Positions 29,560 to 39,766 of a stretch of 42,479 nt of DNA are shown one piece after another. Every line of letters begins with the position of its first letter. The stretch's first letter is position 1. Position numbers and translations under genes: made by a program. The stretch is taken from the sequence record SRR31156797_4835; one strand, 5' to 3'. The notes below the pieces were generated by a model. It had not been told where the DNA came from. It ran no database searches and worked only from the letters and a program-made list of their open reading frames with translations.

Positions 29560-29672
29560 TAAACAACCACCCTTCACCAAGATCCTTTTTATTTAGACCT
29601 GTTACTTTTAAGTAATGTAAGTTGATTACATTTGCATTTAATTATCAATCTAATCAAATTAAACAGGCCAAA

Positions 29673-31064
29673 ATGAAGATTAAATACCTCGACTTGATAG
29701 AACAAACCTTCGATTTTCCCCAGGAGGAATTTCAGGTTGAAGATGGCGAACTTCTATTCCACGATATCCCATTAATGGAAATTGTTAAGCAATATGGCAC
29801 ACCGGTAAAACTCACGTATCTGCCAGAAATCAGTAAACAAATTCAAAAAGCAAAACGGTTGTTCAACGTGGCAATGGCCAAGGTAGATTACGAGGGCGAT
29901 TACAAGTATTGCTATTGTACCAAGAGTTCGCACTTTTCATTTGTGTTGGAGGAGGCTTTGAAAAATAACATTAACATCGAAACTTCTTCAGCTTTTGATA
30001 TAAACATTGTAGAGGATTTGTACCTGAATGGATTAATCAACAAAGACATCTATATCATTTGCAATGGATTTAAACGCCCCCAGTATCTTGAAAATATCAC
30101 AAGAATCATCAATGAAGGGTTCAAAAATGTGATACCCGTGCTGGACAACATGGATGAACTTTCCTACTACGAGGAACACATTAAGGGTAAATTCAAGGTA
30201 GGTATGCGTATTGCTTCAGAGGAAGAACCCATGTTCTCGTTCTACACTTCACGATTGGGTATCCGGTATAATGATCTTGTTCCTTTTTATAATGAGCGCA
30301 TTAAGAAAAACCCGAATATTCAGCTTAAAATGCTGCACTTTTTTATCAACACCGGGATAAAGGATACTGCATACTACTGGAGTGAACTGAGCAAAAGCCT
30401 CAATGTGTATGTAGACCTAAAAAAGATTTGTCCGGATGTGGATGCACTGAATATCGGGGGTGGCTTCCCGATAAAGCGTTCGCTGGGATTTGAATACGAT
30501 TACGAATACATGGCCGAGGAGATTATTGCCCAGATTAAACTCACCTGCGAGCAAAACAACATTAAGGAGCCAGATATTTTTACGGAGTTCGGATCGTTTA
30601 CGGTAGGCGAAAGCGGAGCAGCCATTTATTCGGTTCTTAACCAAAAACGGCAAAATGACCGTGAGCTTTGGAACATGATCGACAGTTCCTTCATGACTAC
30701 CCTTCCGGATTCATGGGCCATCAACCAAAGATTTATCCTGTTGCCGATCAACCGCTGGGAAGATCCATACCAGCGCGTATTTATGGGTGGACTCACCTGC
30801 GACAGCCAGGATTATTACAACGATGAGGCACATTCAAACGCAGTGTTTCTACCCAAATTTGAACAGGATAAACCCTTATTCATCGGGTTTTTCCATACCG
30901 GCGCTTACCAGGAATCGCTGGGTGGATATGGCGGCATCCAGCACTGCCTTATCCCCGCACCCAAGCATATCATCATCGACAAGGATGAAAACGGAGACTG
31001 GTATCCCAGGCTTTTTGCAAAGGAACAAAGTTTTAAGTCGATGCTGAAAACGCTGGGGTATTAA
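29673..31064 (+). CDS. speA: Arginine decarboxylase (Bacteroidota short form, fold type III PLP)
   Basis: YCYCTKSSH (PLP Lys), ICNGFK, NIGGGFP, FTEFGSFTV, LTCDS, GAYQ; start at ATG 29673 downstream of TACATTTG (29627-29634). Confidence 0.85.
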   Translation: MKIKYLDLIEQTFDFPQEEFQVEDGELLFHDIPLMEIVKQYGTPVKLTYLPEISKQIQKAKRLFNVAMAKVDYEGDYKYCYCTKSSHFSFVLEEALKNNINIETSSAFDINIVEDLYLNGLINKDIYIICNGFKRPQYLENITRIINEGFKNVIPVLDNMDELSYYEEHIKGKFKVGMRIASEEEPMFSFYTSRLGIRYNDLVPFYNERIKKNPNIQLKMLHFFINTGIKDTAYYWSELSKSLNVYVDLKKICPDVDALNIGGGFPIKRSLGFEYDYEYMAEEIIAQIKLTCEQNNIKEPDIFTEFGSFTVGESGAAIYSVLNQKRQNDRELWNMIDSSFMTTLPDSWAINQRFILLPINRWEDPYQRVFMGGLTCDSQDYYNDEAHSNAVFLPKFEQDKPLFIGFFHTGAYQESLGGYGGIQHCLIPAPKHIIIDKDENGDWYPRLFAKEQSFKSMLKTLGY

Positions 31065-31222
31065 AATGTGCTGACTTGCAAATCGCGATTTGATTTATCA
31101 AAATATTTCATGATTGACACCCAATGCCGCTGATATAGCGGCGGACATACTCATAGGAATGTCAATTCTACAATAAATAATTCGGCCTCTTCTCACCTGA
31201 ATTAGGCTCGCTCCCTAAAAAA

Positions 31223-31329
31223 GTGTTGAGCTTTTATACACTGTTGCGTTTTTAAACAACATCAGGCAATGCCTTTGTAAATCGCCCTTTCAGGGGTTTT
31301 GTGAATTATAGTGTATAATTTCTCAACAC
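31223..31329. promoter_or_regulatory. Three TGT-N11-ACA sites: probable enhancer for a sigma54 activator
   Basis: tgttgagcttttataca (31224-31240), tgttgcgtttttaaaca (31242-31258), tgtataatttctcaaca (31312-31328); sites 1 and 3 are near-perfect reverse complements. Confidence 0.65.
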
Positions 31330-31405
31330 ATTAACAATCTGCGCCCATTACCCATTTTTATCGTATAGCGCTGTCTATAAGCGTTTTATATGCGTGAATT
31401 TATTT

Positions 31406-31420
31406 TGGTATTGAAATTGA
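31406..31420 (+). promoter_or_regulatory. sigma54-type -24/-12 promoter
   Basis: TGG-tattgaaa-TTGA has the TGG-N8-TTG spacing, lies 61 nt upstream of ATG 31482, and the operon encodes a GAFTGA activator. Confidence 0.6.
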
Positions 31421-31481: not shown

Positions 31482-33167
31482 ATGAAAAATTTAATTTCAT
31501 TTTTTACAGGATGCCTGGTGTTTTACCTGGTAAATATTGCCCTGGCAGGATCGGCTGATGTAAAACCTGAAGCCGTAAACGCTGAAATACTGCTGTATAG
31601 CACCCCCGAAATGGCCACCCTGGCACAAACCTGGGCGGATAACTATCAAAATGTATTTGATGATGTTATCGTACATACGAAAATAATAACTCCCGAAAAT
31701 ACCGGGATGCCGGTTTTTAAGGAAACTGACGTTGCGCTTTTAACAGGACAGGAAATCGACCGGCTGACCGATGCTTCGTATCTTAAATTTGTTGTTGGGC
31801 GGGACGTTATTGTACCTGTAATCAATTCAGAAAATCCGTTCTCAGCCTTGATCAGAAATACGGGTTTCACGCCTCAATATCTTCAGGAATTGTTTTCAAA
31901 ACAGAGCGAAACAAACTGGGGTATGCTGGGTGAGTCCGGGAAAAACCTACCGCTGAACATCTATTTGCCAAATGATGAAACTGTTCAATTTGCTGTTGCA
32001 GAATTTTTGGGTGTTCCCTTTTCAGAACTTACCCGGGAATCAGCTACCGGCGGAATCTCAGCAAAAATACAGGCCGACAAATATGGTTTGGGATGGTGCA
32101 TGCTTTCTGAAGTTTTAGACTCAAAAACCGGTAACCTGATTGAAGGGATTCAGTTGCTTCCGATAGATAGAAATGGAAACGGCGAAATACATCACTTTGA
32201 GAATATTTATAGCGGAATGTATGACTTTAACCGTGGGGTTTGGATTGGAAAATATCCCCACGATCTTATAACCAATATTTATATTGTGATACCTGAAGCC
32301 GGATTATATGGCGATGGCGCCGGCTTTGTGAAATGGGCTGTAACCGATGGACAAGAAGCATTGGCCTCACTTGGCCATAACCCCATGTTGGGCATCGAAA
32401 AAACCGATGTACTTGATGTGATGGCCCTGCCGGGAAACCTTACCAGTGATTCAGGGGGTCGCCTTTCTTCAATAGCGATCGTTCTGTTAATCATTGGTGG
32501 TATAATTCTATTGATCATTGGGGTTGCAACAATATTCAGCTACACAGGAAACGCTGCCATAGCCGCAATAAACAACAGCGAAACACCTGGCGGATACATC
32601 GATGAAAACAGGTTGTCGCTCCCGGGAGGCCTTTATTTTGACAAAACCCATATGTGGGCCTTTATGGAAAAAGAGGGCAGCCTCCGGGTTGGTGTTGATG
32701 ACTTCCTACAACATGTTACCGGCTCATTTTCACGCGTGATCATGAAAAAGAAAGGTCAAAAAATCAAAAAAAATGAACACCTCATCACCTTAATCAGAGA
32801 TGGCAAGCAAATCGATCTCTATTCCCCGGTGTCAGGAACTGTTGTTGACAGCAACCGGTCCATTGCCGAATCTCCTGAACTGATTAATACATCACCATAC
32901 AACGACGGCTGGTTATATATAATCGAACCCTCAAACTGGCTTCGTGAAATTAGTTTTATGCACATGGCTGAAAAACACCTGGAATGGCTAAAATCAGAGT
33001 TTGAAAGGTTGAAAGACTTTTTGGCTTCCAGACTGCATACGGGCAACAACATTGCCAATGAGTTGGTGCTTCAGGAGGGTGGTATGCTCAAGGACCATGT
33101 TCTGGAAGATCTGGACCCTGAAATTTGGGAAGACTTCCAGAAGTGCTTTATCGACAGACCCATTTAA
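31482..33167 (+). CDS. Fusion protein: signal peptide + PstS-like periplasmic binding domain + TM helix + GcvH-like domain
   Basis: GRDVIVPVINSENP and GKYP..L..NIY resemble PBP_like/PstS; TM IAIVLLIIGGIILLIIGVATIF; YFDKTHMW, RVGVDDF, LYSPVSGTVV..N, LINTSPYNDGWL are H-protein motifs. Confidence 0.8.
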   Translation: MKNLISFFTGCLVFYLVNIALAGSADVKPEAVNAEILLYSTPEMATLAQTWADNYQNVFDDVIVHTKIITPENTGMPVFKETDVALLTGQEIDRLTDASYLKFVVGRDVIVPVINSENPFSALIRNTGFTPQYLQELFSKQSETNWGMLGESGKNLPLNIYLPNDETVQFAVAEFLGVPFSELTRESATGGISAKIQADKYGLGWCMLSEVLDSKTGNLIEGIQLLPIDRNGNGEIHHFENIYSGMYDFNRGVWIGKYPHDLITNIYIVIPEAGLYGDGAGFVKWAVTDGQEALASLGHNPMLGIEKTDVLDVMALPGNLTSDSGGRLSSIAIVLLIIGGIILLIIGVATIFSYTGNAAIAAINNSETPGGYIDENRLSLPGGLYFDKTHMWAFMEKEGSLRVGVDDFLQHVTGSFSRVIMKKKGQKIKKNEHLITLIRDGKQIDLYSPVSGTVVDSNRSIAESPELINTSPYNDGWLYIIEPSNWLREISFMHMAEKHLEWLKSEFERLKDFLASRLHTGNNIANELVLQEGGMLKDHVLEDLDPEIWEDFQKCFIDRPI

Positions 33168-33216
33168 CTGAAATTAGTGTTCAAATCAATAAACCAGATT
33201 CAAAATTCATTGAGAT

Positions 33217-34083
33217 ATGAAAATTGACAGAAGAAATTTTTTCAGGGTAGTCGGTGTAACCGGTGCGTCACTGGCTCTGAACGAAAAATTAAATGCCGCT
33301 CCTGAAAATGAATTGGAAGATGATCCTTACGGATTGCTTATCGATTCATTTATGTGTGGTGGCTGCCAGAGTTGTGAGTTTGCCTGTGCTGAAACACACG
33401 GCTTTGCAGAACCCGTAGAGGAACCACAGGTTGGGGTAATTAGAAAAACAGACCATACCCGCCGAACAGTTGTTAATGCTTTTGAAACATCAGAAGGCCA
33501 GGTAACCATAAAAAAACAATGTATGCATTGCATTGATCCGGCTTGCGTTTCGGCATGCCTCACCAAGGCCATGTATAAAACTCCGGAAGGGCCTGTCATC
33601 TGGCGGGAAGATAAGTGTATGGGTTGCAGATACTGCATGATATCCTGTCCGTTTGACGTTCCAAAATTTGAGTATAACAGCCCAAACCCCAGGATTATAA
33701 AATGCGACATGTGCTACGATCGCATCAAAGAAGGGAAAATACCGGCATGTGCAGAAATATGCCCTGCCGATGCAATTGTGTTTGGCAAAAGAAGCGAATT
33801 ACGTAAAGAAGCGCGCAACCGCATATCGGAATTCCCGGAATTTTACCGTGATTATATCTACGGAGAAACCGAAGCTGGTGGTGCCGGAGTGATCTATATC
33901 GGACAGGTACCATTCGATGAAGTAGGATTTAAAACAGGGTTGGAGAAAAATTCCTATCCGTCCCTCTCCAAGGGATTCCTTTACAGTGTGCCTTTTGTGT
34001 TTGTGCTGTGGCCACCGCTGCTATTGGGAATTCATGAAGCAACAAAGAATAATCAAACCAAAAATCCGGACGAAGATGAATAA
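33217..34083 (+). CDS. Tat-exported 4x[4Fe-4S] ferredoxin-type subunit (HybA/HmcB-like) with C-terminal membrane anchor
   Basis: DRRNFF Tat motif; CGGCQSCEFAC, CMHCIDPACVSAC, CMGCRYCMISCP, CDMC...CAEICP; YIYGETEAGG; hydrophobic C-terminal segment. Confidence 0.9.
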   Translation: MKIDRRNFFRVVGVTGASLALNEKLNAAPENELEDDPYGLLIDSFMCGGCQSCEFACAETHGFAEPVEEPQVGVIRKTDHTRRTVVNAFETSEGQVTIKKQCMHCIDPACVSACLTKAMYKTPEGPVIWREDKCMGCRYCMISCPFDVPKFEYNSPNPRIIKCDMCYDRIKEGKIPACAEICPADAIVFGKRSELRKEARNRISEFPEFYRDYIYGETEAGGAGVIYIGQVPFDEVGFKTGLEKNSYPSLSKGFLYSVPFVFVLWPPLLLGIHEATKNNQTKNPDEDE

Positions 34084-35308
34084 TACAAGCCAGTACACAT
34101 TATCAAAACACGGTAACGGCAAGAACATGTGGAAATTTCTTGTTGCCGAACTAAAGCCAAAAGGTAAACTATTCACACCTTTCAACATTATTTCCATTCC
34201 GATTATACTAACAGGCCTGGTGCTCATTGTTATCCGTTTCTGGAAGGGAATTGGAGCGGTAACAAACCTGACCCAGGATGTTCCCTGGGGCCTCTGGATC
34301 GGATTTGACGTGGTAACAGGTGTAGCATTTGCCGGTGGCGCTTATGTCATCACCTTCATGGTGTATATTCTGAATATGAAAAAATACCATTCCATTGTCC
34401 GGGTAACCGTACTTAACGGATTCCTGGCCTATGTTTTTTATGCCGGAGCACTGCTGCTCGATTTGGGCCGTCCGTGGAATGTGATCAATCCAATTATTGG
34501 GAACAGTTTTGGTACAAGCTCGGTATTATTTCTCGTCGCCTGGCATTTTCTGCTTTATATGATCGCACAGCTAATTGAATTTTCACCGGCCATTGCCGAG
34601 TGGCTGGGGGCCCGGCGAGCACATCGTATACTTTCGGGCATGACCCTGGCAGCCGTAATATTCGGCATCACGCTGTCAACACTCCACCAATCCGGGCTTG
34701 GCGCGTTGTACCTTATGGCCAAAGAAAAAATCCATCCACTTTGGTATTCGGAGTTTATTCCCATCCTGTTTTTTGTGTCCAGCATCTTCGCGGGTCTTTC
34801 CATGGTAATTTTCGAAGGCTCTATCAGCAGTAAAGTTTTCTCAGATCAGATCAGCGAAAAAAACCACCGGTCGCACCGTAGGATCATACACGGTTTAAGT
34901 AAAATCTGTGCAGGTACGCTTTTCGCCTATTTCTTTCTGCAGGTTGTAGTATTCGTACACGGCCAGCACTGGAACCTGTTGAATACCCCAATGGGATACT
35001 GGTACCTCACTGAAATGTTGGGATTCGTTGCACTTCCCACATTATTATTTGTGCTTGGGTATAAACAAAATAGTGTAATTATCATCAAAATTGCATCCAT
35101 CCTAACCATTTTAGGGATAATCATCAACCGGCTCAACATTACTGTTATCGGGTTCAGGTGGGATGCTGCAACACCCTATGTTCCATCATGGATGGAAATT
35201 GTAGTTACCCTCACGGTGATCTTTACCGAGATATGGATTTTCAGGTGGGTAATTAACCGCATGCCTGTACTCCGCGAATCTCCGTCCTGGGCAAAACATA
35301 ATTCATAA
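34076..35308 (+). CDS. NrfD/PsrC-family integral membrane protein (HybB/HmcC-like)
   Basis: PWGLWIGFDV..GVA.AGG, LDLGRPWN, STLHQSGLGAL, Y.PSWME; about 10 TM helices; ATG 34076 overlaps the upstream gene by 8 nt. Confidence 0.9.
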   Translation: MNNTSQYTLSKHGNGKNMWKFLVAELKPKGKLFTPFNIISIPIILTGLVLIVIRFWKGIGAVTNLTQDVPWGLWIGFDVVTGVAFAGGAYVITFMVYILNMKKYHSIVRVTVLNGFLAYVFYAGALLLDLGRPWNVINPIIGNSFGTSSVLFLVAWHFLLYMIAQLIEFSPAIAEWLGARRAHRILSGMTLAAVIFGITLSTLHQSGLGALYLMAKEKIHPLWYSEFIPILFFVSSIFAGLSMVIFEGSISSKVFSDQISEKNHRSHRRIIHGLSKICAGTLFAYFFLQVVVFVHGQHWNLLNTPMGYWYLTEMLGFVALPTLLFVLGYKQNSVIIIKIASILTILGIIINRLNITVIGFRWDAATPYVPSWMEIVVTLTVIFTEIWIFRWVINRMPVLRESPSWAKHNS

Positions 35309-35338
35309 ACTTTTTGTAAAAATTAAATTTATTATATC

Positions 35339-36049
35339 ATGAACCAAATAATTTATACCGGCCTGTTTGAAACCAAAGGCATAGAATATATCATCGTCAT
35401 TGCCTTCCTGGTGGTTCTCATCCCATTTTGGATATACATCAGCAACAGCAAAAAAGTTGTGCAAACCATTAATCGTACCATCGACAACCTGACTCAAAAA
35501 ATCCTGAATTTGCCCCAGGGTATCTATTTCAGTAAAAATCATACCTGGGCTTTTATGGAAAAATATGGTGCTGCCAAAGTCGGGCTCAACGATTTTCTTG
35601 CTTCTATCCTCGGCAAGGTAAAGGTTAGATTGGTGAAAAACCCCGGAGACCTGGTAGAAAAAGGTGAAATCGTTGCTGAATTAGAACATGGAGACAAGCG
35701 GCTGATGATCAAATCACCATTATCGGGTACCATTGTGAAAATTAACGAAAATGTGCTTGAAAACCCGGGTTTGATCAACAGCAGTACCTATGAATCGGGG
35801 TGGCTCATTGATATAACTCCTGACCAGTGGAAAGCCGAAACCAACACGTTCCTAATGGCCGACAATGCCACCAGGTGGATACTCAATGAAGTAGACAGGT
35901 TTAAAGATTTTCTTGCTGTTACCATGGTGCGTAATAGCGCTGAACCGGAATTGATCGCCTTTCAGGAGGGTGGAGAACTGCGCAGCCGGATCTTGGACGA
36001 TCTGGATGGGAACATATGGGCAGAGTTCCAGAAATCCTTCCTCGAATAA
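35339..36049 (+). CDS. Membrane-anchored GcvH-like protein
   Basis: N-terminal FETKGIEY plus TM helix; YFSKNHTW, KVGLNDF, KSPLSGTIVKIN, YESGWL, FQEGG; clear paralogue of the C-terminal domain of 31482..33167. Confidence 0.85.
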   Translation: MNQIIYTGLFETKGIEYIIVIAFLVVLIPFWIYISNSKKVVQTINRTIDNLTQKILNLPQGIYFSKNHTWAFMEKYGAAKVGLNDFLASILGKVKVRLVKNPGDLVEKGEIVAELEHGDKRLMIKSPLSGTIVKINENVLENPGLINSSTYESGWLIDITPDQWKAETNTFLMADNATRWILNEVDRFKDFLAVTMVRNSAEPELIAFQEGGELRSRILDDLDGNIWAEFQKSFLE

Positions 36050-36155
36050 TGAAGGCCAGGATGTTGGTGTTAAAATATTTTGAATTGATTGTATTTTTTG
36101 TATTTTGCAAAACGCTGAACATCTGGCAATCCTCTCTGGAAATAGGCTAAAAAAA

Positions 36156-37826
36156 ATGAAAACTGAATGGAAAAACAGGTTTGGTGATATCAACAGGGTT
36201 ATAAAAAAATCCCTGCGCTTCCGGTCGTCCATATTTGGAAGGGTAATTGTAATTATCACCCTGCTGTCCATCTTTCTTTTTGTAAGTTTCGGGTTAATAT
36301 TCCGATCGGTTTATGAAAACCATCTAAATACGGTAATTCGCCAGAACGGAAACAATATCGGATCGATTGTTGAGGGAGCCCTATACCATTCGATGCTGAA
36401 AAATGACAAGGGAGCATTGCAAAACACACTGGACATCATCAATACCCTGCCCAACATTGATGAGCTCAATTTGTATGACAACAAAGACAGCCTTGTGTAT
36501 TCGTCCTATTCATTCGATACTCCCGATCACGGTGATCCGGACTGTAAAAGCTGTCATGCAGATATACACACCATGTTCCCGGCCAGGGAAAAATCATACC
36601 GCCTTATCAGCAATGCCAGTGTGTGTAACATGTCTGTTGGTGCCACAGAAGAATCATTCAGACAGTTGATGATCCGTTCACCCATTTTTAATGAAAAATC
36701 TTGTTACACCGCGTCTTGCCATGCCCACAGCAAATCAGAAGAAGTGTTGGGATCGCTGATCATCAAAATACCACTCCGGGAATTAGACACTGCAGTATCA
36801 AAATCTTCAACGGAATTTTTCCTGCTTGCAGCCCTGAGTACTTTTTTACTGGTGCTTGTACTGATATTTTTTACACGCCGAAATATCAAGGAACCGCTCA
36901 AGGCCATCATCACTGCCAGCGAGGCTGTTGCGAAAGGCAACAGGGAAATGCGCCTCGACATTAAACCAAATCTGCTTGACGACATGCGCCTGGTTTCGGT
37001 AGCGTTCAACAATATGCTTGACAACCTGCAACAGGCTAACAAAGAGCTCCGTAACTGGTCGCAACAGCTTGAATACAAAGTTCAAAAAAAATCTGAAGAA
37101 CTCTCTGAAATACAGAATGAGCTGATTCACGTGGAACGGATTGCGTCACTGGGAAAGCTGTCTTCATCTGTTGCCCATGAAATCAATAATCCATTGTCCG
37201 GCGTTCTCACTTACTCCAAACTGGTCCACAAACAACTCGAAAAACTGGAGGTAAATTTTAATTCCAAACAATCGATGCTGAAATACCTGACAGTGATCGA
37301 AAATGAAACCAAAAGATGCGGCGATATTGTGAAGGGCCTGCTGGATTTTTCGCGCAAGGACCAGCAAAATTTCGAATATAAACATCTGCATGCCATACTG
37401 CAGGACACCTTTACACTCATGGCACACCAAATGAAGATTTCGGATATTAATTTTTATACTGATTTAAAAGCAGATGATGACCTGATAAACTGCAATGAAA
37501 ACCAGGTTAAACAAGCCTGTGTGGCCATCCTGGTAAATTCGAGTGAGGCAACAGGCAGTGGTGGAGAAGTGGTCATTCACACCGAAAATCCCGATCCTGA
37601 ACATGTAAGGATGAATATTTCAGATACCGGAATAGGTATCTCCGGGGAAGATATGCAGCATATTTTCGAACCGTTTTTTTCGGCCAAGAAAAAAACCAAC
37701 GGTATCGGGCTGGGACTGGCCATCGTTCACGGGATTATTCAAAGTCACAAAGGAAAAATCGACATACAATCCGAAGTGAATAAAGGAACTACCCTGTCGA
37801 TAACATTACCATTGGGTAAAAAATAA
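36156..37826 (+). CDS. HAMP sensor histidine kinase with periplasmic c-type heme-binding motifs
   Basis: Two TM helices flank CKSCH and CYTASCH; HAMP; H-box VAHEINNPL; DTGIG, GIGLGL. Start placed at ATG 36156. Confidence 0.9.
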   Translation: MKTEWKNRFGDINRVIKKSLRFRSSIFGRVIVIITLLSIFLFVSFGLIFRSVYENHLNTVIRQNGNNIGSIVEGALYHSMLKNDKGALQNTLDIINTLPNIDELNLYDNKDSLVYSSYSFDTPDHGDPDCKSCHADIHTMFPAREKSYRLISNASVCNMSVGATEESFRQLMIRSPIFNEKSCYTASCHAHSKSEEVLGSLIIKIPLRELDTAVSKSSTEFFLLAALSTFLLVLVLIFFTRRNIKEPLKAIITASEAVAKGNREMRLDIKPNLLDDMRLVSVAFNNMLDNLQQANKELRNWSQQLEYKVQKKSEELSEIQNELIHVERIASLGKLSSSVAHEINNPLSGVLTYSKLVHKQLEKLEVNFNSKQSMLKYLTVIENETKRCGDIVKGLLDFSRKDQQNFEYKHLHAILQDTFTLMAHQMKISDINFYTDLKADDDLINCNENQVKQACVAILVNSSEATGSGGEVVIHTENPDPEHVRMNISDTGIGISGEDMQHIFEPFFSAKKKTNGIGLGLAIVHGIIQSHKGKIDIQSEVNKGTTLSITLPLGKK

Positions 37827-37835
37827 ACGTATACC

Positions 37836-39182
37836 ATGACCAAAAAAATTTCGCTATTGATTGTTGATGATGAAGAATCTGTAAGGGACTCGCTTAACAA
37901 CTGGTTTATTGAAGATGGGTATGATGTGGCCTGTGCTGCCAACGCCAAAGATGCACTTTCGATGCTCAAGGCCAAAAACTACGACATCATCCTGGCGGAT
38001 ATAAAAATGCCAGGGATGGACGGCATCGAGATGAACAAACGTATAAAAGCGCTGAACCAGGATGCAATCGTTATTATCATGACTGCCTTTGCCTCGGTGG
38101 AAACCGCCGTGCAGGCGCTCAAAGACGGTGCTTACGACTACGTAACAAAACCTTTCGACCCCGATGACCTGTCGCACCTTATCCGCAACGCTTCAAGCCA
38201 TATTACCCTGCAGGCTGAAAATGAAGCCCTGAAAAACAAAGTGATCACACTGGAAAACATCGATGACATTATCGGCACCAGTAAACAGATGGTTAATGTA
38301 CTTAAGGAAGTGGAAAATGTTGCCCAGTCAAACTCTTCGGTAATCATCACCGGTGAAAGCGGGACCGGAAAGGAACTCATTGCCAGGGCTATCCATTCCA
38401 ACTCACCCCGAAAATATTTTCCGATGGTTTCAGTCCATTGCGGAGCTTTATCAGAAAACCTGCTCGAGAGTGAGCTTTTCGGTCATGAGAAAGGTGCCTT
38501 CACAGGCGCCATGTTTAATCGTAAAGGCCGGTTTGAGATGGCCGATGGTGGCACCATTTTTCTTGATGAAATCGCCACAGTTTCTTCGAAAATGCAGGTT
38601 GAACTGCTACGGGTTCTCGAAACCAAAAGCTTTGTTAGGGTTGGTGGTAACAAGGAAATCACTTCCGATTTCAGGGTGATTTGCGCCACAAACCGCGACC
38701 TGAAAAAGCTGGTGGACAATGGAACCTTCCGCGAAGACCTCTACTATCGCCTTAATGTGGTCAACATCCGGATTCCTCCGCTCAGAGAGCGCCCCGAGGA
38801 TATTCCGATGCTGGCACAACATTTCGTGAAAAAATACTGCACCTCCATGAGCCGCGACACCATCACCATCGAAGGGGCAGCACTCAAAAGGCTTGAGTCA
38901 TACGATTTTCCCGGTAATGTACGAGAGCTGGAAAACATGATCGAGCGGGCCATTGTGGTTGGTAACGGAAAAGAAATTCGTTTGGGTGACCTGCCACTTG
39001 GCAAGGACAGCATCAGTGCTGCTTACGAAAGCCTTGAAGACCTCGAGAAAAAGTACATTCTCGAAGTACTCAACAACAACGACTGGAACATCTCCCGGTC
39101 GGCAAGGATCCTTAAGGTTGACCGTGTTACCCTCTACAACAAAATCAAAAAACACAGACTGGAATCGCAACAAGTAAGCTAA
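37836..39182 (+). CDS. sigma54-dependent NtrC/AtoC-family response regulator
   Basis: Receiver (IVDDE, ADIKMPGMDG), GESGTGKE, ESELFGHEKGAFTGA, FLDEI, FREDLYYRLNV, PGNVRELEN, Fis-type HTH. Confidence 0.96.
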   Translation: MTKKISLLIVDDEESVRDSLNNWFIEDGYDVACAANAKDALSMLKAKNYDIILADIKMPGMDGIEMNKRIKALNQDAIVIIMTAFASVETAVQALKDGAYDYVTKPFDPDDLSHLIRNASSHITLQAENEALKNKVITLENIDDIIGTSKQMVNVLKEVENVAQSNSSVIITGESGTGKELIARAIHSNSPRKYFPMVSVHCGALSENLLESELFGHEKGAFTGAMFNRKGRFEMADGGTIFLDEIATVSSKMQVELLRVLETKSFVRVGGNKEITSDFRVICATNRDLKKLVDNGTFREDLYYRLNVVNIRIPPLRERPEDIPMLAQHFVKKYCTSMSRDTITIEGAALKRLESYDFPGNVRELENMIERAIVVGNGKEIRLGDLPLGKDSISAAYESLEDLEKKYILEVLNNNDWNISRSARILKVDRVTLYNKIKKHRLESQQVS

Positions 39183-39235: not shown

Positions 39236-39766
39236 TTGGAACCGCAAAAAATAGTATTGATTTATCACGGCCCGTTTGAGCAGCATTGTCTCAACACCAT
39301 CGTTTCGGATATCCGGCAGATATACGGATTCCCGGTTGAGATGAGAAAATGCCACACCGACATCAGCGCTTTTTTTGATCCGGTCAGGCGACAATACAAC
39401 GCCAATAAGCTCCTGAATTATATAAAATCAAAACCTGACGGCAATACACTAAAAACCGTTGGTTTATTTCGTGTAGACCTGTTTATACCCATTCTCACTT
39501 ATATTTTTGGCCAGGCTGTATTCAAGGGCAATGCCGGTGTCGTATCTGTTTATCGTCTGCGCAATGAACAATATGGCCTCCCACCGGATCAGCAGCTGCT
39601 TCAGGAAAGATTACGTAAGGTTGTGATTCACGAGTTGGGTCACACCTTCGGTCTGGTGCACTGCCTCAACCCCGGTTGCGTTATGCGCTCCAGCACCTAT
39701 GTGGAAGACATCGACCAGAAAAAGCTGCACCTATGCAATCAGTGCCGGGAAGCGCTGGAGGTTTAA
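39236..39766 (+). CDS. Archaemetzincin-family (M54) Zn metalloprotease
   Basis: RRQYNA, YIFGQA, HELGHTFGLVHC, CVM, LCNQC (Cys4 structural Zn); TTG start. Confidence 0.9.
   Translation: MEPQKIVLIYHGPFEQHCLNTIVSDIRQIYGFPVEMRKCHTDISAFFDPVRRQYNANKLLNYIKSKPDGNTLKTVGLFRVDLFIPILTYIFGQAVFKGNAGVVSVYRLRNEQYGLPPDQQLLQERLRKVVIHELGHTFGLVHCLNPGCVMRSSTYVEDIDQKKLHLCNQCREALEV

Follow-up and report, generated by a model that had tools for sequence, protein, structure and literature searches.

A pair of membrane-anchored H-protein folds beside Hmc-like genes in Bacteroidia: candidate cofactor-free subunits of a quinone-linked membrane module

Introduction

What would two proteins with the fold of the glycine-cleavage H protein (GcvH) do on either side of genes encoding HmcB- and HmcC-like proteins? 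This question is raised by four co-directional genes (31482-36049) found in a 42,479-nucleotide stretch of sequence record SRR31156797_4835 (hereafter, the window). They belong to a seven-gene cassette, which successively encodes a long H-fold protein, an HmcB-like protein, an HmcC-like protein, a short H-fold protein, a kinase, a sigma-54 regulator and an M54 peptidase. We propose, with a probability of about 0.5, that the two H-fold proteins are cofactor-free cytoplasmic subunits of a quinone-linked membrane module of the Hmc/Nhc type. The four genes are the following:

31482..33167, plus strand: long H-fold paralogue, 561 amino acids (open reading frame (ORF), Pfam and AlphaFold2 (AF2) model)
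33217..34083, plus strand: HmcB/HybA-like iron-sulfur protein, 288 amino acids (NCBIfam, Pfam Fer4_11, motifs from the translation)
34076..35308, plus strand: HmcC/HybB-like membrane protein of the NrfD family (NCBIfam HmcC, Pfam NrfD)
35339..36049, plus strand: short H-fold paralogue, 236 amino acids (ORF, Pfam and AF2 model)

Fold and Architecture of the Two Paralogues

The long paralogue is composed of an N-terminal signal or helix, a PstS-like domain (residues 34-315), a membrane helix (330-357), the H-fold (379-506) and a tail (507-561). The short one is composed of an N-terminal stub and membrane helix (residues 14-35), the H-fold (57-183) and a tail (184-236), and its stub and helix are strongly conserved in the family alignment. 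Both proteins exceed the gathering cut-off of the Pfam family GCV_H (PF01597, 22.2 bits), with 83.8 bits at residues 384-496 of the long form and 85.4 bits for the short form. The AF2 models, whose mean predicted local distance difference test scores (pLDDT) are 88.9 (long) and 83.4 (short), agree with this assignment. Indeed, Foldseek aligns the long model with GcvH at template modelling (TM) scores of 0.93-0.95 and a root-mean-square deviation (rmsd) of 1.1-1.5 Å, and the short model with GcvH structures at TM 0.87-0.90, the rmsd of the two models together being 1.1-2.0 Å. In the VIA comparison, the short model superposes on the pea H protein (1dxm_A) over 130 residues with Z 17.6 and an rmsd of 1.6 Å. 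The two cytoplasmic modules are themselves 40% identical over 180 residues, without any gap (E 2e-50). Hence, the reading of both as H-fold proteins, made in a preliminary description of this DNA, stands at the domain level; what that description had overlooked are the membrane anchors, the HmcD-like helix of the short form, the PstS-like domain of the long form and the cassette of seven genes.

The likeness of the short form's helix to HmcD is faint in the window (16 bits at residues 11-34, below the cut-off of 34), and HmcD is matched by 6 of 36 short relatives, with a best E-value of 2.8e-07. The periplasmic domain of the long form scores 21.1 bits with Pfam PBP_like_2 and resembles phosphate-binding proteins (Foldseek, 4jwo, E 3.7e-15); the profile of the long-form family also matches PstS (4gd5, E 4.3e-10). 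This PstS-type domain (31581-32426) is 12-16% identical to its matches, and the usual anion-binding loops rich in Ser, Thr and Gly are not evident when the translation is inspected by eye. The twin-arginine signal of the iron-sulfur protein and the positive-inside rule suggest that both H-folds face the cytoplasm, the iron-sulfur subunit being periplasmic.

Divergence from the Glycine-Cleavage H Protein

Are these two proteins the H proteins of the cell's glycine-cleavage system? The equivalog families for GcvH argue against it: the two window proteins score 69.1 and 65.6 bits with TIGR00527 (cut-off 115.85), and 77.2 and 77.9 bits with NF002270 (cut-off 117). The same two families are matched by 36/36 short relatives, for which best E-values, and no scores against the cut-offs, were recorded. 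In place of the window's own genome, we used three related genomes. Two of the three, which carry the same cassette, encode a separate canonical GcvH of 127 amino acids, which scores 140-150 bits, versus 81-90 bits for the cassette paralogues of these genomes. Moreover, the canonical proteins are strongly acidic (core net charge -18 and -19, isoelectric point (pI) 4.1) and the cores of the window proteins are not (charge -1 and 0, pI 6.1 and 7.0). GcvH is a soluble protein of about 130 amino acids, compared with the 236 and 561 amino acids of the window proteins, each of which possesses one membrane helix. The cytoplasmic part contains no Cys in the short paralogue and a single one in the long paralogue; 45 of 70 short relatives and 56 of 80 long ones have none.

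This loss of acidic surface bears on the question of lipoylation. A 2026 preprint reports that all tested GcvH and LbpA proteins have a strictly conserved lipoyl-lysine located in a beta-turn, and that an LplA-type ligase relies on negative surface charge to recognise its target.

Taken together, the scores below the equivalog cut-offs, the presence of a canonical GcvH elsewhere in two of the three related genomes and the HmcB- and HmcC-like neighbours support the conclusion that the window pair are not glycine-cleavage carriers, as had been proposed from the letters of this DNA.

Register of the Hairpin Lysine

In lipoylated H proteins the cofactor is held by a lysine of a beta-hairpin, and the preliminary description had claimed that this lysine is lost from both paralogues, being replaced by G and D, with a Lys standing one residue later. 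The two peptides on which this claim was based are present where they had been placed, i.e., IRDGKQIDLYSPVSG at residues 438-452 of the 561-residue ORF (32793-32837) and EHGDKRLMIKSPLSG at residues 116-130 of the 236-residue ORF (35684-35728). The hairpin residues in question are the following:

32799..32807, plus strand: D440-G441-K442, hairpin tip of the long paralogue (alignment and AF2)
35693..35698, plus strand: D119-K120 of the short paralogue (alignment and AF2)

Three approaches give the same register. In ungapped HMMER alignments with solved GcvH chains (2edg, 1dxm, 3klr, 1onl and 3a8i), the column of the lipoyl-lysine is occupied by G441 in the long form and D119 in the short form, K442 and K120 coming one residue further on. 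The register is identical when two canonical GcvH (EAVKTVSD) from related, cassette-carrying genomes are added and aligned with MAFFT, again without gaps. Finally, the AF2 models place a two-residue turn at 118-119 (short) and 440-441 (long), with the Lys opening the returning strand; the structure-based location of the hairpin tip thus puts the Lys beside the turn and not in it. The loss of the canonical lysine is thereby borne out, and, since the two modules are related by a gap-free identity of 40%, the register that they share is not a matter of chance.

How conserved is this shifted lysine? Among 150 aligned family members, the column holds K in 80/80 long forms, always after G, and a second alignment shows G441 and K442 invariant in 109/109 long forms. 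The 70 short forms are more tolerant: 61 have K and 6 have R, and Q, H and a further residue occur once each. Two cassettes of other lineages, L090 and L092, which we reached through one distant member protein, depart further, with Arg in all three of their membrane-anchored H-folds and Gly in both of their Cys-rich forms.

These observations allow one to weigh the idea that the shifted Lys, at least in the long form, is modified (by a lipoyl, octanoyl, biotinyl or other acyl group) and that the protein is a membrane-tethered swinging arm, which would ferry an acyl group or reducing equivalents along the complex's inner face. The invariance of G441-K442 in the long form and the presence of K in most short forms would fit such a role, as would the closeness of the fold to lipoylated GcvH, the position of the Lys next to the hairpin tip, where it is unburied in the predicted dimer described below, and the Lys retained in the canonical column by the distant member P0265 and by one L092 paralogue. 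However, every alignment places the Lys one residue away from the canonical column, Arg, Gln or His stands in for Lys in 8/70 short forms, all five H-folds of L090 and L092 have Arg or Gly instead, and the acidic surface that the preprint describes as required by an LplA-type ligase is gone. Neither the cassette nor its flanks contain a ligase, a lipoyl synthase or a thiol-redox partner. A shift of the lysine by one residue in an E2 lipoyl domain reportedly abolished lipoylation (work of Wallis and Perham, 1994). We therefore regard modification of this Lys as unlikely.

As a property of the whole family, use of the shifted Lys as a lipoyl site is unlikely because of the off-by-one register, the Arg, Gln and His replacements, the Arg or Gly of distant lineages, the lost acidic surface and the lack of a conserved Cys. 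Since other lineages' cassettes carry Arg or Gly at this position, the shifted Lys would rather be a conserved basic residue than a general acyl site, and it is invariant only in the long form of Bacteroidia. Hence, of the earlier alternative "non-lipoylated or differently modified", the first part probably holds, to judge by the Arg of 6/70 short forms, the Arg or Gly of distant ones and the lost charge; the second part would apply, if at all, to the long form, whose Lys is invariant in 109/109 members.

The C-Terminal Tail

Both paralogues continue beyond the end of the H-fold:

33000..33164, plus strand: added tail of the long paralogue, with Q531-E532-G533-G534 at 33072-33083
35888..36046, plus strand: added tail of the short paralogue, with Q209-E210-G211-G212 at 35963-35974

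The GG of this QEGG motif is found in 150/150 aligned members, G211, G212 and W227 being invariant in all 150, and G533 and G534 are likewise invariant in the long-form alignment. Where does the tail begin? Sequence alignments to canonical GcvH stop near residue 183 of the short form and 506-508 of the long form, and the structural alignment to the pea H protein reaches residue 190 of the short model, so that the truly added segment comprises about 46-55 residues. An extension past the normal GcvH end, as the preliminary description had it, does exist with its invariant GG. Its first part (W..E..R.KDFL), on the other hand, belongs in part to the C-terminal helix that GcvH normally has, which it makes longer. 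A Pfam search of the tail returned no family at E up to 1. Neither Foldseek nor VIA found a structural match to the short paralogue beyond about residue 190, and a search of the ESM Atlas with the tail retrieved only fragments of the same family, with scores of 0.83-0.85 that lie below the useful range.

One could imagine that the pair is a new type of membrane-tethered carrier, in which either the invariant long-form Gly-Lys receives an acyl or other modification at its non-canonical place in the hairpin, or the M54 peptidase exposes the invariant internal GG as a reactive C-terminus, much as in ubiquitin-like sulfur carriers. If so, the H-fold pair would carry a group back and forth between cytoplasmic enzymes and the NrfD-type subunit's inner face. 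We hold this to be a long shot.

Predicted Pairing of the Cytoplasmic Modules

Since both proteins had been proposed to be interaction domains, possibly forming a heterodimer, we co-folded the cytoplasmic modules of the long form (residues 372-561) and the short form (residues 50-236), together with three controls. The pair obtained ipSAE scores of 0.77, 0.79 and 0.79, versus 0.01 for the best control; the mark used in this test is reached by 51/78 solved complexes and by 2/108 mismatched pairs. Contact agreement between the runs was 100%, and the pLDDT of the partners was at least 87. The predicted interface is formed by residues 381-384, 394-399, 473 and 486-487 of the long form and by residues 59-62, 72-77, 151 and 164-165 of the short form, i.e., by equivalent positions in both chains. 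It holds family invariants (P59, G61, G77 and W164 in the short form; G383, G399 and W486 in the long form) and adjoins the linkers to the membrane helices.

These predictions support a pseudo-symmetric heterodimer of the cytoplasmic modules. The pairing that had been suspected thus passes a controlled fold test, although this test does not separate a heterodimer from homodimers. The predicted interface uses residues conserved specifically in this family. It leaves out both the Lys hairpin and the GG tail, on which the earlier reading had centred.

The Hmc-Like Neighbours and the Conservation of the Cassette

What are the two proteins encoded between the H-fold genes? For the first one, the best NCBIfam family is HmcB (295 bits, cut-off 420), followed by HybA (222.8 bits, cut-off 263). 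Its translation displays a twin-arginine signal (DRRNFFR), four Cys cluster motifs and a C-terminal membrane helix. For the second one, the best family is HmcC, with 406.8 bits over ORF residues 63-435 (cut-off 550), and the second best is HybB (249.2 bits). The start of this latter gene is uncertain, being the ATG at 34076 or the one at 34127, in a frame that is open from 33986. A multihaem cytochrome c subunit of the HmcA/NhcA type was found neither among the seven window genes nor in the conserved flanks, and hydrogenase genes are likewise lacking in the cassette and its flanks.

The family is broad. A search of representatives at 50% identity retrieved 3988 proteins at E <=0.001 and 260 clusters at E <=1e-30, with two length classes, short (about 236 amino acids) and long (about 560 amino acids), which a FastTree phylogeny of the core separates in 147/150 rows. 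Among odd-length relatives, Pfam revealed no noteworthy alternative N-terminal domain. At its C-terminus, the H-fold protein P0215 (263 amino acids) resembles the end of a GH43 glycosidase (Pfam E 8.7e-12), and its record is probably chimeric or misassembled.

For the gene neighbourhood we kept 80 loci, with 286 confirmed stretches in species-level genomes; almost all of their sources are named Bacteroidales or Bacteroidia. The seven-gene order is found in 55/80 loci, and in 4 more with a second kinase added; most of the others are short contigs. Beyond the seven, flanking genes recur in at most 6 of 52 loci. It is this fixed gene order, together with the lack of any other recurrent flanking gene, that supports membership of the H-fold proteins in a complex with the HmcB- and HmcC-like proteins. 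Upstream of the window's cassette lies a gene (29622-31064) for a pyridoxal-phosphate-dependent protein resembling Orn/Arg decarboxylases, which has no counterpart beside the cassette in the 80 related loci.

The breadth of the family also bears on whether the pair could simply be decaying gcvH duplicates devoid of a function of their own. The lost lipoyl-lysine and the lost acidic surface are what such decay might leave behind; it is nevertheless contradicted by the 260 clusters at E <=1e-30, the H-fold ORFs that are intact in 80/80 loci, the invariant residues of the tail, the fixed gene order and the confident structural models. We find it barely credible.

Related Cassettes in Distant Lineages

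The cassettes of L090 and L092 give another view of the same association, since their H-fold genes also travel with a kinase, an activator and an M54 peptidase. In L092, the short form scores 36 bits with HmcD (cut-off 34) and the HmcB-like protein 446 bits with HmcB (cut-off 420). Moreover, a gene located between the H-fold genes and the HmcB-like gene (L092, 8688-9476) encodes a class III (c3-type) cytochrome with eight CxxCH motifs, which resembles the C-terminus of HmcA and the nine-haem cytochrome. With HmcD and HmcB above their cut-offs and a c3-type cytochrome present, the L092 cassette would be a recognisable complex of the Hmc/Nhc type, in which HmcD is fused to an H-fold.

Both distant cassettes possess a third type of H-fold protein, encoded after the HmcC-like gene (10755-11606 in L090, 11794-12630 in L092). 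This type lacks a membrane helix and bears an N-terminal C-x12-C-x6-C-x2-C motif; its hairpin contains neither Lys nor Arg, and it ends in the same GG tail. In a FastTree phylogeny of 61 subsampled family rows and 8 others (moderate support, 0.58-0.94; rooted on two canonical sequences), the long and short forms of Bacteroidia are sister clades among the membrane-anchored proteins, a group from which the Cys-rich forms are excluded.

The Regulatory Genes of the Cassette

The remaining elements of the cassette are the following:

31406..31420, plus strand: sigma-54-type promoter TGGTAT-N5-TTGA, 76 nucleotides 5' of the first cassette gene
36105..37826, plus strand: sensor histidine kinase (Pfam HAMP, HisKA, HATPase)
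37836..39182, plus strand: sigma-54-dependent response regulator with receiver, AAA+ and HTH_8 domains (Pfam Sigma54_activat 237 bits, Response_reg 113 bits)
39236..39766, plus strand: M54 (archaemetzincin-type) zinc peptidase, last cassette gene (Pfam Peptidase_M54 85 bits)

The periplasmic part of the kinase matches no Pfam family above threshold. It carries two haem-type motifs, CKSCH and CYTASCH, at residues 147 and 200. Motifs of these two types (CxxCH and Cx4CH), spaced by 51-53 residues, are both present in 68/70 kinase ORFs from 64 related loci, as well as in L090 and L092, and suggest that the kinase binds haem. The M54 peptidase follows the regulator in most related loci and in both distant ones.

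The promoter was identified with the expression TGG[CT]A[CT]N5TTG[CA], which has a single match in the window, at 31406. In 37/52 related loci of at least 16 kb, the motif is found on the plus strand just 5' of the first cassette gene, with a density at this position of 0.418/kb, versus 0.0085/kb elsewhere on both strands, i.e., an enrichment of about 50-fold. The cassette's own activator would act on this sigma-54-type promoter. A 23-nucleotide inverted repeat (31220-31242 and 31310-31332; 83% complementary, 67 nucleotides apart) lies 75-190 nucleotides 5' of the promoter and could be a pair of activator binding sites.

With such regulators next to them, could the H-fold proteins belong to the signalling part rather than to the redox part of the cassette? 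They would then report the state of the quinone module, or a periplasmic ligand captured by the PstS-like domain, to the kinase or the activator, and the whole cassette would be a self-regulated redox or flux sensor. The H-fold genes do accompany the kinase, activator and M54 peptidase genes in Bacteroidia and in two distant lineages, a sigma-54-type promoter precedes the first gene, and neither the cassette nor its flanks encode a catalytic subunit. The architecture of the long paralogue, a periplasmic binding-protein fold linked by one helix to a cytoplasmic module, is that of a receptor, and the Lys hairpin and the tail are left free in the predicted dimer. What speaks against this possibility is that the kinase has a periplasmic sensor part of its own with two conserved haem-type motifs, that the HmcD-like helix of the short paralogue points to a structural place in the complex, and that in L092 the c3-type cytochrome lends the module the appearance of a functioning electron-transfer complex of the Hmc/Nhc type. 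We consider a signalling role possible, though doubtful.

Proposed Arrangement of the Pair

We return to the reading of the pair as subunits of the membrane module. In this arrangement, each H-fold protein would be held in the membrane by one helix, that of the short form being the counterpart of HmcD, with its H-fold and tail of about 50 residues at the inner membrane face. Below the HmcC-like subunit, the two cytoplasmic modules would lie next to each other, in contact through the edges closest to the membrane. They would not be swinging-arm carriers, given that the lipoyl-lysine is lost, the shifted Lys is merely basic, no Cys is conserved and the acidic surface is gone. The exposed hairpin with its Lys or Arg and the tail with its invariant GG would remain free for another partner, which may be the inner face of the HmcC-like subunit, or the kinase or activator of the cassette. 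The sequences and models show the fold, the register of the Lys, the conservation, the gene order, the promoter motif and, at model level, the dimer; the topology, a shared complex with the HmcB- and HmcC-like proteins, the lack of lipoate and any gating or docking role are inferred.

Several points weigh against this arrangement. First, the scores of the window proteins with HmcB, HmcC and HmcD are all below the curated cut-offs of NCBI. Second, the gene association is not perfect: in L042 (6123-8705), the long and short H-fold genes are adjacent, without any HmcB or HmcC hit between them, and are followed by the kinase, regulator and peptidase genes, and the full-length loci L039 and L063 have no downstream kinase and regulator. 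Third, as regards the hairpin, the invariance of the long-form Gly-Lys appears stricter than a simple charge role needs, and P0265 and one L092 paralogue have a Lys in the canonical column. Fourth, the HmcB-like protein of L090 (8754-9542) starts right at its first Cys cluster and lacks a twin-arginine signal, for which the upstream sequence leaves no space; the membrane side of the iron-sulfur subunit may therefore differ between lineages, or this subunit may be exported together with a partner. Finally, the predicted pairing would fit a heterodimer or homodimers of either of these close paralogues alike, and it is silent on any contact with the HmcC-like protein.

Relation to Known Systems

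The closest relative by fold is GcvH itself, with which the window proteins share 27-33% identity over the same fold of about 125-130 residues (PF01597; TIGR00527; 1onl, 3a8i, 1dxm). Unlike GcvH, they have a shifted Lys, a charge of about zero, a membrane anchor, a GG tail of about 50 residues and a one-residue insertion in the FMEK hairpin, and their genes are not beside gcvT or gcvP. By gene content, the closest systems are the Hmc and Nhc complexes of sulfate reducers (HmcA-F, NhcA-D), which provide the best NCBIfam matches to the HmcB- and HmcC-like genes and, through HmcD, a match to the helix of the short form, all of them below the cut-offs in the window. The window differs from them by lacking the cytochrome subunit, HmcE and HmcF, by a host that belongs to the Bacteroidia and is not a sulfate reducer, by the fusion of the HmcD-like helix to an H-fold and by a second paralogue that adds a PstS-like periplasmic domain. 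HybA and HybB of E. coli hydrogenase 2 are the second-best matches, and the twin-arginine signal and C-terminal anchor are common to HybA and the iron-sulfur subunit of the window; HybA and HybB are not known to have H-fold partners.

H-folds recruited outside glycine cleavage are already represented by LbpA, of sHdr sulfur oxidation, and by GcvH-L of Streptococcus and Staphylococcus; the GcvH-L structure 5a35 matches the short model (Foldseek E 2e-07; Z 11.9). LbpA and GcvH-L differ from the window pair in being soluble and, according to the preprint, in keeping the lipoyl-lysine and being lipoylated, and LbpA has two conserved Cys, of which the window family conserves none.

A more remote comparison concerns the N-terminal barrel-sandwich domains of RnfC and NqrA, which belong to cytoplasm-facing subunits of membrane redox complexes. 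These cofactor-less kin of lipoyl and biotinyl domains give weak matches limited to the hybrid barrel (RnfC_N in Pfam, 19.5 bits, cut-off 25.6; NqrA 4u9o_A, Z 4.6 over 72 residues), the window proteins clearly being of the GcvH subfamily and having a tail of their own. The sigma-54-dependent cbcBA/BccR operon of Geobacter was also considered as a relative and dropped: its description, in the part accessible, names two hypothetical proteins, a regulator and two cytochromes and does not contain the word "glycine".

Literature searches combining the H protein with NrfD, HybA or sigma-54, and archaemetzincin with sigma-54, returned no description of such a cassette; a review of the NrfD family was not covered. 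The publications retrieved on "GcvH-like" proteins all deal with lipoylated soluble proteins. Thus, the H-protein fold and the Hmc-type module are known, and we found no description of their fusion, of the tail, of the lost lipoyl site or of the pairing.

Significance

In public databases, these proteins are named "glycine cleavage system protein H". This label is very probably wrong and would inflate the counts of glycine cleavage in Bacteroidia metagenomes. The H-fold pair marks a self-regulated and unstudied cassette, common in anaerobic Bacteroidia, which combines an Hmc/Nhc-type quinone module with a haem-motif kinase and a sigma-54 activator. Cultured hosts such as Draconibacterium halophilum exist, which makes the question testable. 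If the pair does prove to be a subunit of the module, it would add another instance in which the fold of a carrier protein has been put to structural or regulatory use in a respiratory complex, and would give a handle on the role of small subunits such as HmcD.

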